64,000 nucleotides of DNA from Escherichia phage Nernie. Positions 14,100-14,215 of the stretch are shown one piece after another. The translations under genes were made by a program, and so were the position numbers. Position 1 is the first letter of the stretch. Each line of letters starts with the position of its first letter. The DNA lies in sequence record PP925835.1; one strand, 5' to 3'. The notes below the pieces were generated by a model. The model made no database searches. It saw only the letters and a program-made list of their open reading frames with translations, and had not been told where the DNA came from.

Positions 14100-14215
14100 T
14101 CTAAATGAGAAAAATTCTCATTTGCTAATGATTCTCATTCTCTTACTGAGAATGATTATCACTTACATAATTAAATGATAATGATTCTCATTTACAAATG
14201 AGAATGATTATCATA
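14100..14215. promoter_or_regulatory. array of Fur-box-like palindromes
   Basis: At least five overlapping dyads (AATGAGAAaaaTTCTCATT, AATGATtctCATT, GAGAATGATTATCAC, AATGATAATGATTCTCATT, GAGAATGATTATCAT) within ~115 bp. Confidence 0.5.

Follow-up and report, generated by a model that had tools for sequence, protein, structure and literature searches.

In the genome of Escherichia phage Nernie (sequence record PP925835.1), a non-coding gap of 813 nt holds a cluster of palindromic dyads that resemble binding sites of the Fur protein. We analyzed the 64,000-nt stretch of DNA that contains this gap, hereafter the window. Are these dyads Fur boxes, which protein recognizes them, and what could an array of operators devoid of its own promoter do at this place? 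The comparisons reported here identify the dyads as Fur boxes by sequence and place them in a conserved control module; host Fur is the likeliest ligand, and an iron-dependent gate on transcription is the function that we tentatively favour. The region 13000-15500 is 98% identical to the Justusliebigvirus phages outra, Bas62 JohannJBalmer and phi92, relatives that belong to the Stephanstirmvirinae and are virulent E. coli myoviruses of ~145-150 kb; its sequence thus assigns the window to a phi92-like myovirus.

Five Fur-type boxes form a dense array

Boxes were scored against the 15-bp 7-1-7 dyad TGATAATnATTATCA and against the 19-bp consensus GATAATGATAATCATTATC. The dyads quoted in an initial annotation of this DNA are all present in the sequence (AATGAGAAaaaTTCTCATT at 14104-14122, TCATTCTC..GAGAATGA at 14134-14154, GAGAATGATTATCAC at 14148-14162, AATGATAATGATTCTCATT at 14174-14192 and GAGAATGATTATCAT at 14200-14214). 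The array consists of five separate boxes, 17-29 bp apart and spanning ~110 bp, with matches to the 19-mer that reach 16-17/19. A further, isolated box lies some distance away.

14106..14120, no strand assigned: box 1, TGAGAAAAATTCTCA, 3 mismatches; first box past the leader of promoter P2 (see below), position invariant in nine related phages
14123..14137, no strand assigned: box 2, TGCTAATGATTCTCA, 2 mismatches
14147..14161, no strand assigned: box 3, TGAGAATGATTATCA, 1 mismatch to the 7-1-7 unit
14176..14190, no strand assigned: box 4, TGATAATGATTCTCA, 1 mismatch; 16/19 to GATAATGATAATCATTATC; best position weight matrix (PWM) match of the window, 24.0 bits
14199..14213, no strand assigned: box 5, TGAGAATGATTATCA, 1 mismatch
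13301..13315, no strand assigned: isolated Fur-like box, TGATCATCGTTATCA with 2 mismatches, immediately upstream of a promoter-like site (13286-13258, minus strand) of the early gene block

The numbers of boxes with at most 2 mismatches were compared with those in dinucleotide-preserving shuffles (n=2000). Four boxes were observed in the 813-nt gap against 0.013 expected, four in the region 1484-3160 against 0.073, and four in the 126 bp of 14095-14220, shuffled alone, against 0.021; the observed counts were reached by 0/2000 shuffles in any of the three regions, which rules out an origin by chance or low complexity. Within the window, nine of the ten matches of this quality are found in two large non-coding gaps or, for the box at 13301, in a gap between divergent promoters. 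The complete genome of Bas62, the 98% identical relative, carries 11 such boxes (2.5 expected), and its PWM matches of at least 14 bits, ten in all, are confined to these two gaps. When the array was compared by BLAST with 5,426 E. coli genomes, only short chance matches were obtained, and a strict two-box pattern scan of IMG/VR matched only 3 contigs, too few to be informative. The description of the locus as a dense, multi-site array of the Fur-box type, with five boxes at 14106-14213, agrees with both the shuffles and the conservation in nine loci presented below.

A motif derived from phage DNA retrieves E. coli Fur operators

To avoid circularity, the Fur consensus was set aside and a motif was derived de novo from words common to 12 non-coding regions of phages. 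Among AT-rich 8-mers, only AATGAGAA, ATGAGAAT and AAATGAGA occurred in 12/12 regions, and expectation maximization seeded with AAATGAGAAT converged on AATGAGAATGATTATCATTCT. Of the 18 positions that align with the 19-bp Fur consensus, 16 agree, and the motif also displays the hexamer periodicity of that consensus. The phage matrix was then applied to E. coli DNA. On 26 kb of E. coli K-12 carrying the ent-fep cluster, ranks 1-4 corresponded to the fepB-entC (twice), fepD-entS and fepA-fes intergenic regions, which occupy less than 3% of the test sequence; on a separate 45-kb stretch, ranks 2 and 3 corresponded to the fhuA promoter. The fepB-entC, fepD-entS, fepA-fes and fhuA sites are classical chromosomal Fur operators. 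Half-sites in the phages tend to read TGAGAAT or TGCGAAT in place of the canonical TGATAAT, and the GAGAA variant is also found inside host operators, in fepB (ATAATGCTTCTCATT) and fhuA (AATCATTCTCG). Because a motif obtained from phages only recovers the host Fur operators, GAGAA variant included, the phage boxes are, as far as sequence can tell, Fur boxes equal to the best host operators.

Rank 1 in the 45-kb fhuA test region is another site, AAATTGAGAATCATTCTGAAT, in the map-rpsB intergenic region upstream of tff/rpsB (L028, position 44580); to our knowledge it is not a recognized Fur site.

Host Fur is the likeliest ligand

The initial annotation had left the choice between host Fur and an early protein of the phage. 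The sequence evidence points to the former, and no support was obtained for the latter. A tblastn search with E. coli Fur revealed no homologue in records of Stephanstirmvirinae, Vequintavirinae, Demerecviridae and Alcyoneusvirus, and a phage-encoded Fur was rejected for these groups. The same boxes are carried by T5-like phages and by the jumbo phage RaK2. None of the T5 terminal-repeat proteins, A1 and A2 included, gave a tblastn match in the phi92-like genome. The proteins common to T5 and Bas62 at E<1e-4 (among them NrdA, NrdB, NrdD, a Sir2-family protein, PhoH, phosphatases, a cell-wall hydrolase and a protein of the homing-endonuclease type) include no obvious DNA-binding regulator, and, at the sensitivity of BLAST, a regulator common to the T5 and phi92-like genomes was rejected. 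Closer to the array, the 88-aa product of gene 13575-13841 contains a helix-turn-helix-like stretch; it has no Pfam domain, and no homologue was found in the T5-like or RaK2 loci. The slot of this gene is occupied by unrelated small genes in Mydovirus and some Seunavirus, by a third gene in NINP13076 and by none in CR3. The 88-aa protein was rejected as the regulator binding the boxes, its slot being filled by unrelated genes or empty in genera that keep the boxes.

Could the array nonetheless serve a phage-encoded DNA-binding protein with Fur-like specificity? The G or CG favoured at positions 3-4 of the half-sites is a consistent departure from TGATAAT, several putative transcription factors are annotated just outside the window in the phi92-like genome, and the stretch in the 88-aa neighbour would suit such a role. 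Against this, genuine Fur operators of E. coli are retrieved with the motif, genera that keep the boxes do not all have the neighbouring gene, no Fur-family gene was found, and T5-like phages and RaK2 carry the boxes, yet no regulator common to T5 and the phi92-like phage came to light at BLAST sensitivity. We consider a phage ligand improbable. Because neither a Fur homologue nor a shared DNA-binding protein was found, a factor common to all the hosts would be the economical explanation, with host Fur as the likeliest candidate; Fur itself quite probably binds the boxes.

E. coli cells that overexpress FeoB or YdiE are protected against T5 and the T5-like phage CEV2, a protection ascribed by the authors to Fur-Fe repression of the receptor gene fhuA (PMC7553319). 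It is compatible with Fur acting on phage DNA, without requiring it.

The array belongs to a conserved control module

Conservation was analyzed in nine loci of Stephanstirmvirinae and Vequintavirinae whose hosts are Escherichia, Shigella, Klebsiella, Salmonella and Cronobacter. A sensitive search indicated that the gap is conserved well outside the genus. Synteny is maintained and boxes are present at the equivalent place in 9/9 loci, with 1-4 boxes of at most 2 mismatches in each, so that the conservation in related phages by which the initial annotation proposed to judge its motif is indeed observed. Ahead of the boxes, the following elements were recognized:

13844..13872, plus strand: predicted, very strong sigma-70 promoter P1, TTGACA-N17-TATACT, 11/12; overlaps the terminator-like hairpin of the upstream gene
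13879..13965, plus strand: highly conserved non-coding segment of ~90 nt, downstream of P1
13984..13998, plus strand: direct repeat GTAAAGAAATGTAAA, GTAAA-N5-GTAAA, CpxR-box-like, upstream of the P2 -35; invariant in nine loci
14014..14041, plus strand: predicted sigma-70 promoter P2, -35 TTGCTT, 16-nt spacer, extended -10 TGcTATTCT; geometry kept in nine phages, function inferred
14050..14100, plus strand: GC-rich leader of ~50 nt between P2 and box 1; alignable in nine phages and recognizable after the first RaK2 promoter

In the alignments these elements follow a fixed order: P1, the ~90-nt segment, TTTGTAAAGAAnTGTAAAGA, P2, the leader and the first Fur box at a constant distance. Past the first box, nothing but further boxes can be aligned; their number and precise sequence change from phage to phage, but the motif persists. 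Such turnover is consistent with selection for a DNA motif bound by a protein and not with selection for an RNA hairpin, which would have preserved pairing as the sequence drifted.

Across the nine loci, P2 has a -35 of TTGCTT, TTGATC or TTGCAA, a spacer of 16-17 nt with free sequence and an extended -10 such as TGnTATTCT or TATTAT. The repeat GTAAAGAAATGTAAA upstream of it is the sole GTAAA-N5-GTAAA match in 64 kb, and a 10-nt indel between the repeat and the P2 -35 keeps the helical phase. We take this repeat to match the consensus of the CpxR box; the upstream region of E. coli degP carries the same TTTGTAAAGAC, and RaK2 has four copies of the repeat within 1.2 kb. P2 may therefore respond to envelope stress. 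Folding the P2 leader as a single RNA sequence gave nothing better than shuffles (z near 0).

The segment after P1 is 81-87% conserved across Vequintavirinae and Stephanstirmvirinae of many hosts, and it is non-coding because 1-nt indels rule out a coding function. RNAalifold predicted 19 pairs, one of them compensatory (G-C to A-U), with an apical hairpin of variable length; the single-sequence fold was no better than shuffles (z near 0), and Rfam at gathering and permissive thresholds gave no real match, the microRNA-type matches reflecting inverted repeats. We regard the segment as a candidate new phage small RNA.

An iron-dependent gate on read-through is the favoured function

The array was initially placed upstream of the early gene block and was suspected of controlling the switch between early and later transcription, or replication initiation, roles that are speculative. 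The local map, built from the annotation of relatives and from the open reading frame (ORF) list, contradicts this placement:

13123 down to 3163, minus strand: early block of small early-type genes (ORF list and annotation of relatives)
13575-13841, plus strand: lone gene, 88 aa (ORF list)
13842-14654: non-coding gap of 813 nt between the plus-strand gene and a minus-strand operon
14655-15206, minus strand: NADAR/YbiA-like gene; the stop codon of the minus-strand operon borders the gap
beyond 15206: further members of the minus-strand operon, a CapR/T5orf172 protein and an FtsH-like ATPase

Between the early block and the array lie gene 13575-13841, P1, the ~90-nt segment and P2, and P2 points away from the block. 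The promoter-like sites of the early block itself are at 13176-13463. All early genes between the array and the right end are transcribed endward, and P1 and P2 are oriented in the opposite direction, into the interior of the genome. The module thus sits at the inner boundary of a right-terminal early-gene segment of ~12 kb.

Combined, these data lead us to favour five high-affinity host-Fur sites that act, within the conserved control module, as an iron-dependent gate on read-through from P1 and P2, a reading to which we give a probability of about 0.42. Action in cis on the P2 and P1 transcripts is suggested because the coupling of promoter, leader and first box is invariant and recurs in RaK2, where the order GTAAA repeat, sigma-70 promoter, leader and box(es) is found together with a second promoter-leader-box unit. 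In an iron-replete cell, Fe2+-Fur dimers would coat the ~110 bp of the array, which extends from +57 to +165 relative to the putative P2 start near 14049. Bound Fur would constitute a protein barrier, or downstream operator, limiting read-through from P1 and P2 into the AT-rich repeats at 14235-14439 and the genome interior. Metal-free Fur would permit read-through, and host iron status would be coupled to events past the early segment; the transcripts might serve as primers at an origin, extend as antisense RNA into the convergent operon or act otherwise. The boxes of the terminal repeat and those at 2841 and 2899, described below, would place end-proximal, box-overlapped promoter-like sites under the same Fur control.

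Several points weigh against this gate. The preference of phage half-sites for TGAGAAT or TGCGAAT leaves room for a different ligand. The array does not cover the -35 and -10 of a repressed promoter, as a classical Fur operator does, and a promoter scan inside the array returned only weak 9/12 matches and no strong promoter. We know of no established mechanism of roadblocking by Fur. The P2 start that sets the distances is read from sequence alone. No coding sequence lies ahead of P1 and P2, which leaves P2 without a coding target downstream, and it is not evident what a phage would gain from blocking read-through in iron-replete cells.

The tract that P1 and P2 face is the basis of another explanation.

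14235..14439, plus strand: three AT-rich direct repeats of 63-75 nt, each with AAACTTTAAAT, in a tract of ~31% GC

These repeats are iteron-like; AAACTTTAAAT is essentially confined to this locus (3/4 exact matches in the window, and likewise in Bas62), and outside this core they are poorly conserved. A promoter next to an AT-rich region is a common design of phage origins (T7, T4). The module might accordingly be part of a replication origin, in which transcripts from P1 and P2 activate or prime initiation at the repeats and the Fur array has an architectural or regulatory role. Strong promoters facing a low-GC tract with a locus-confined core motif, and no coding sequence downstream, are what such an origin would display. 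No DnaA boxes were found, however, no initiator gene is adjacent, the conservation of the repeats is limited to AAACTTTAAAT, the T5 array is not at a mapped origin, and the GC skew merely follows the direction of transcription. Of the explanations weighed here, this is the one we find least probable.

Fur-type boxes also occur at the genome end

The initial annotation reported the same motif family at 1785-2920, and boxes are found there at 1787, 1982, 2841 and 2899.

1733..2074, no strand assigned: direct terminal repeat (343 bp in phi92); window 2074 is phi92 position 1
1787-1801 (overlapping extension to 1813), no strand assigned: Fur-like box, 1 mismatch, inside the terminal repeat
1982-1996, no strand assigned: Fur-like box, perfect 7-1-7, 0 mismatches, inside the terminal repeat
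2841..2855, no strand assigned: Fur-like box TAAGAATGATTATCA, 2 mismatches
2899..2913, no strand assigned: Fur-like box TAAGAATGATTATCA, 2 mismatches; shares bases with the -10-like hexamer of a putative weak promoter on the plus strand, TTGCAT-N17-TAAGAA(T)

Operator-like sites are therefore common to the two non-coding regions that flank the early block, as had been proposed, with the correction that the second region holds the phi92 terminal repeat and is not a plain intergenic flank. Positions 2074-1733 of the window match phi92 1-343 at 98.5%, phi92 is annotated with 343-bp direct terminal repeats, and several other records begin or finish at this very base. Because 1733-2074 is the phi92 terminal repeat, the window runs through a collapsed genome end. 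The boxes at 1787 and 1982 correspond to phi92 positions 71-97 and 270-290. In the Phapecoctavirus Mt1B1_P17, an exact 328-bp repeat is present at both record ends with two boxes inside.

The boxes at 2841 and 2899 are located in a 1.1-kb non-coding stretch immediately inside the right repeat. Downstream of box 2899 come a strong Shine-Dalgarno sequence and an ORF of 27 codons at 2928-3011 (plus strand), MRKRLFLPDSCMKKLKISGLKHAVSAL, and Mt1B1_P17 has a matching layout, with TTGCAT-N18-GATAAT within TGATAATGGTTATCA, AGGAGG and an unrelated small ORF. The box 2899 unit looks like a classical Fur-repressed unit; its putative promoter is weak and was not flagged by the scan. Indeed, promoter matches in 1400-3250 were not enriched (12 vs 11.3 in shuffles), and the hand-picked promoters overlapping boxes are thus weak evidence. 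Box 1982 is near weak promoter-like hexamers that it possibly overlaps.

A second type of action was also weighed. About 10-12 strong boxes per genome, multiplied by DNA replication, could titrate Fur in trans and make the array a decoy; iron uptake and RyhB iron sparing would be derepressed and would feed the iron-dependent ribonucleotide reductases of the phage. The principle of Fur titration was reportedly established by Stojiljkovic in 1994 in a plasmid-based assay, and Fur is said to amount to a few thousand molecules per cell (Zheng, 1999). The sites are many, strong, clustered and untied to a promoter, their number varies from 1 to 5 among relatives, as expected if dose outweighs geometry, and NrdA/B and NrdD are encoded by all three phage groups that carry arrays. 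A pure sponge, however, needs neither the fixed position of the first box past the P2 leader in every phage nor the promoter-leader-box order found again in RaK2. Some relatives have only one or two boxes at the array locus, and T5 degrades host DNA within minutes, which would render derepression of the host useless to that phage. Titration is a possibility that we hold unlikely, though we rank it ahead of the other alternatives to an iron-dependent gate.

Similar arrays are found in T5 and RaK2

When the 111 kb of T5 (AY587007) were scored with the phage motif, the six top-ranking sites were all located at 9473-9640. They coincide with the annotated palindromes E, G and I and with copies of direct repeat C ("repeat region 3"). 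Next to them are the inverted repeats that contain the DnaA boxes, the first-step-transfer shear point and the major nick 1 at 7.9%. The array of the window corresponds to phi92 ~137,050, which leaves 11.6 kb, 7.8% of the genome, between it and the right end; in Mt1B1_P17 this distance is 13.3 kb or 8.8%. Like the array described here, the T5 injection stop region is non-coding and is ~8% of the genome away from one end, where it borders, on the inner side, a terminal block of small early genes transcribed endward; in both, AAATGAGAATCATTATCATTT-type palindromes with a spacing of 23-36 bp precede other direct repeats. In T5, the pre-early genes dmp, A1 and A2 are read toward the nearby end, and a short inward unit, ORF011-017, runs toward the array. 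T5 differs by its paired DnaA boxes, which are located in inverted repeats of the injection stop region (Davison preprint 10.1101/866236), by a 10-kb terminal repeat, by site-specific nicks and by A1/A2, none of which was found in the phi92-like phage. The DnaA box TTWTNCACA is absent from both non-coding gaps of the window, and the array lies outside the 343-bp repeat of phi92, whereas the T5 repeat includes it. The parallel with T5 is thus architectural only. Between 1987 and 2026 the description of the T5 region has gone no further than 'rich in repeats and palindromes', and Fur is mentioned neither in Davison's comparative preprint nor in a 2026 T5 preprint.

From this likeness, the array could be viewed as a boundary of the T5 type, marking the inner limit of the terminal segment that enters or is expressed first and pausing entry or end processing until early proteins are made, either by DNA structure (cruciform-prone palindromes) or by a bound protein, with or without Fur. 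The coincidence of the best T5 motif matches with injection-stop palindromes, distances of 7.8% and 8.8% next to 7.9% for T5 nick 1, the endward small early genes followed by a short inward unit into the array in both types of phage, and the extra boxes inside the phi92 terminal repeat are consistent with such a role. The lack of A1/A2 homologues and of DnaA boxes and the position of the array outside the terminal repeat argue against it. Furthermore, two-step entry is known for T5 and not for phi92-like phages, the value of 8% may be a coincidence, and the likeness may merely reflect a common use of Fur in ordinary regulation. We judge a boundary of this kind doubtful, less so than an origin. 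Equally speculative is its extension to a boundary element common to T5-like, phi92/rV5-like and RaK2-like virulent phages, with arrays of Fur-box palindromes as its core, that would delimit the ~8% terminal segment entering or expressed first; a gate on read-through from P1 and P2 remains the explanation that we favour.

A perfect 7-1-7 box, TGATAATCATTATCA, is also present at T5 233-247 (Seafire 220-234), 233 bp from the left end of T5 and inside dmp. It was set aside as evidence, as it encodes Asp-Asn-Asp-Tyr-Gln and its conservation may be driven by coding.

In the jumbo phage vB_KleM_RaK2, a promoter, a GC-rich leader and one Fur box come first, and TTTGTAAAGATTTGTAAAAG, another promoter, its leader and an array of five or six boxes come next. 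The phage differs in that its 346-kb genome belongs to another lineage and carries many copies of an additional lineage-specific palindrome, CAGTACTG. We consider the RaK2 module homologous to that of the window, as judged from the shared order of elements. It is located in a non-coding region (L017, 2100-3620).

Two systems with known Fur sites complete the comparison. The E. coli Fur operators (fepB-entC, fepA-fes, fepD-entS, fhuA and the multi-site aerobactin operator iucA) share with the phage array the 7-1-7/19-bp motif and adjacent, overlapping boxes; they overlap -35 and -10 elements, whereas the phage array begins 57 nt past the nearest conserved promoter and has no downstream gene. 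The stx1 promoter of Shiga-toxin prophages likewise carries a host Fur site on a phage genome, and Calderwood and Mekalanos are said to have found in 1987 that this box makes a phage-borne transcription unit iron-responsive. That site is a single, promoter-overlapping operator of a toxin gene in a temperate phage; here, a promoter-less array belongs to the core non-coding architecture of a virulent phage.

Other features of the window

The ORF at 2928-3011 is antisense to the early block and ends ahead of a bidirectional terminator at 3129-3147. Just inside the right terminal repeat, the segment 2290-2830 is dense in short repeats, such as TTAGATAGATTATAGTTA (twice) and the 16-nt tandem TATGAAATGATTA (three times), and a perfect 15-nt inverted repeat is present at 2290/2421. 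Copies of CACACCCC with a T-run behind them are restricted to the two large non-coding gaps (positions 1578, 1655, 2409 on the minus strand and 14618 of the window, and likewise in Bas62), and no hairpin is present. No tRNAs were found.

In the minus-strand operon, gene 15207-16379 encodes CapR-homology repeats and a T5orf172 domain, typical of homing endonucleases; its length varies among close relatives (1173 vs 1398 nt), and a T5 homologue is present. Several MG0656xx records carry the label 'Campylobacter phage' (C3, A150, B15 and others) and share 95-97% identity with the coliphage of the window; probably the host given is wrong or the records are contaminated.

Implications for virulent coliphages

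Fur boxes are textbook operators. A conserved, promoter-less Fur-box array in the terminal architecture of virulent phages is not described in the literature searched; the kind of site is known and its usage here appears undescribed. The clusters richest in 'persistent virulent phages' of bacterial isolates are the Vequintavirinae and the Asteriusvirus jumbo phages (bioRxiv 10.1101/2024.12.31.630880). Relatives of both groups carry the Fur-box module, which is no more than a loose lead.

The link with T5 would be the larger prize, the palindromes E, G and I being recognized as Fur-box matches. Should the shared boundary element exist, the T5 injection-stop 'palindromes' would be Fur sites, phi92-like phages would infect in T5-like stages, and host Fur (that is, iron status) or the palindromes themselves would hold back the rest of the genome. 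With the CpxR-like site next to P2, the module may integrate several host signals. If Fur binds the array, common and therapeutically used coliphages would read the iron status of their host directly; iron is limiting in the gut and at sites of infection, and its availability could alter the timing or the yield of infection.

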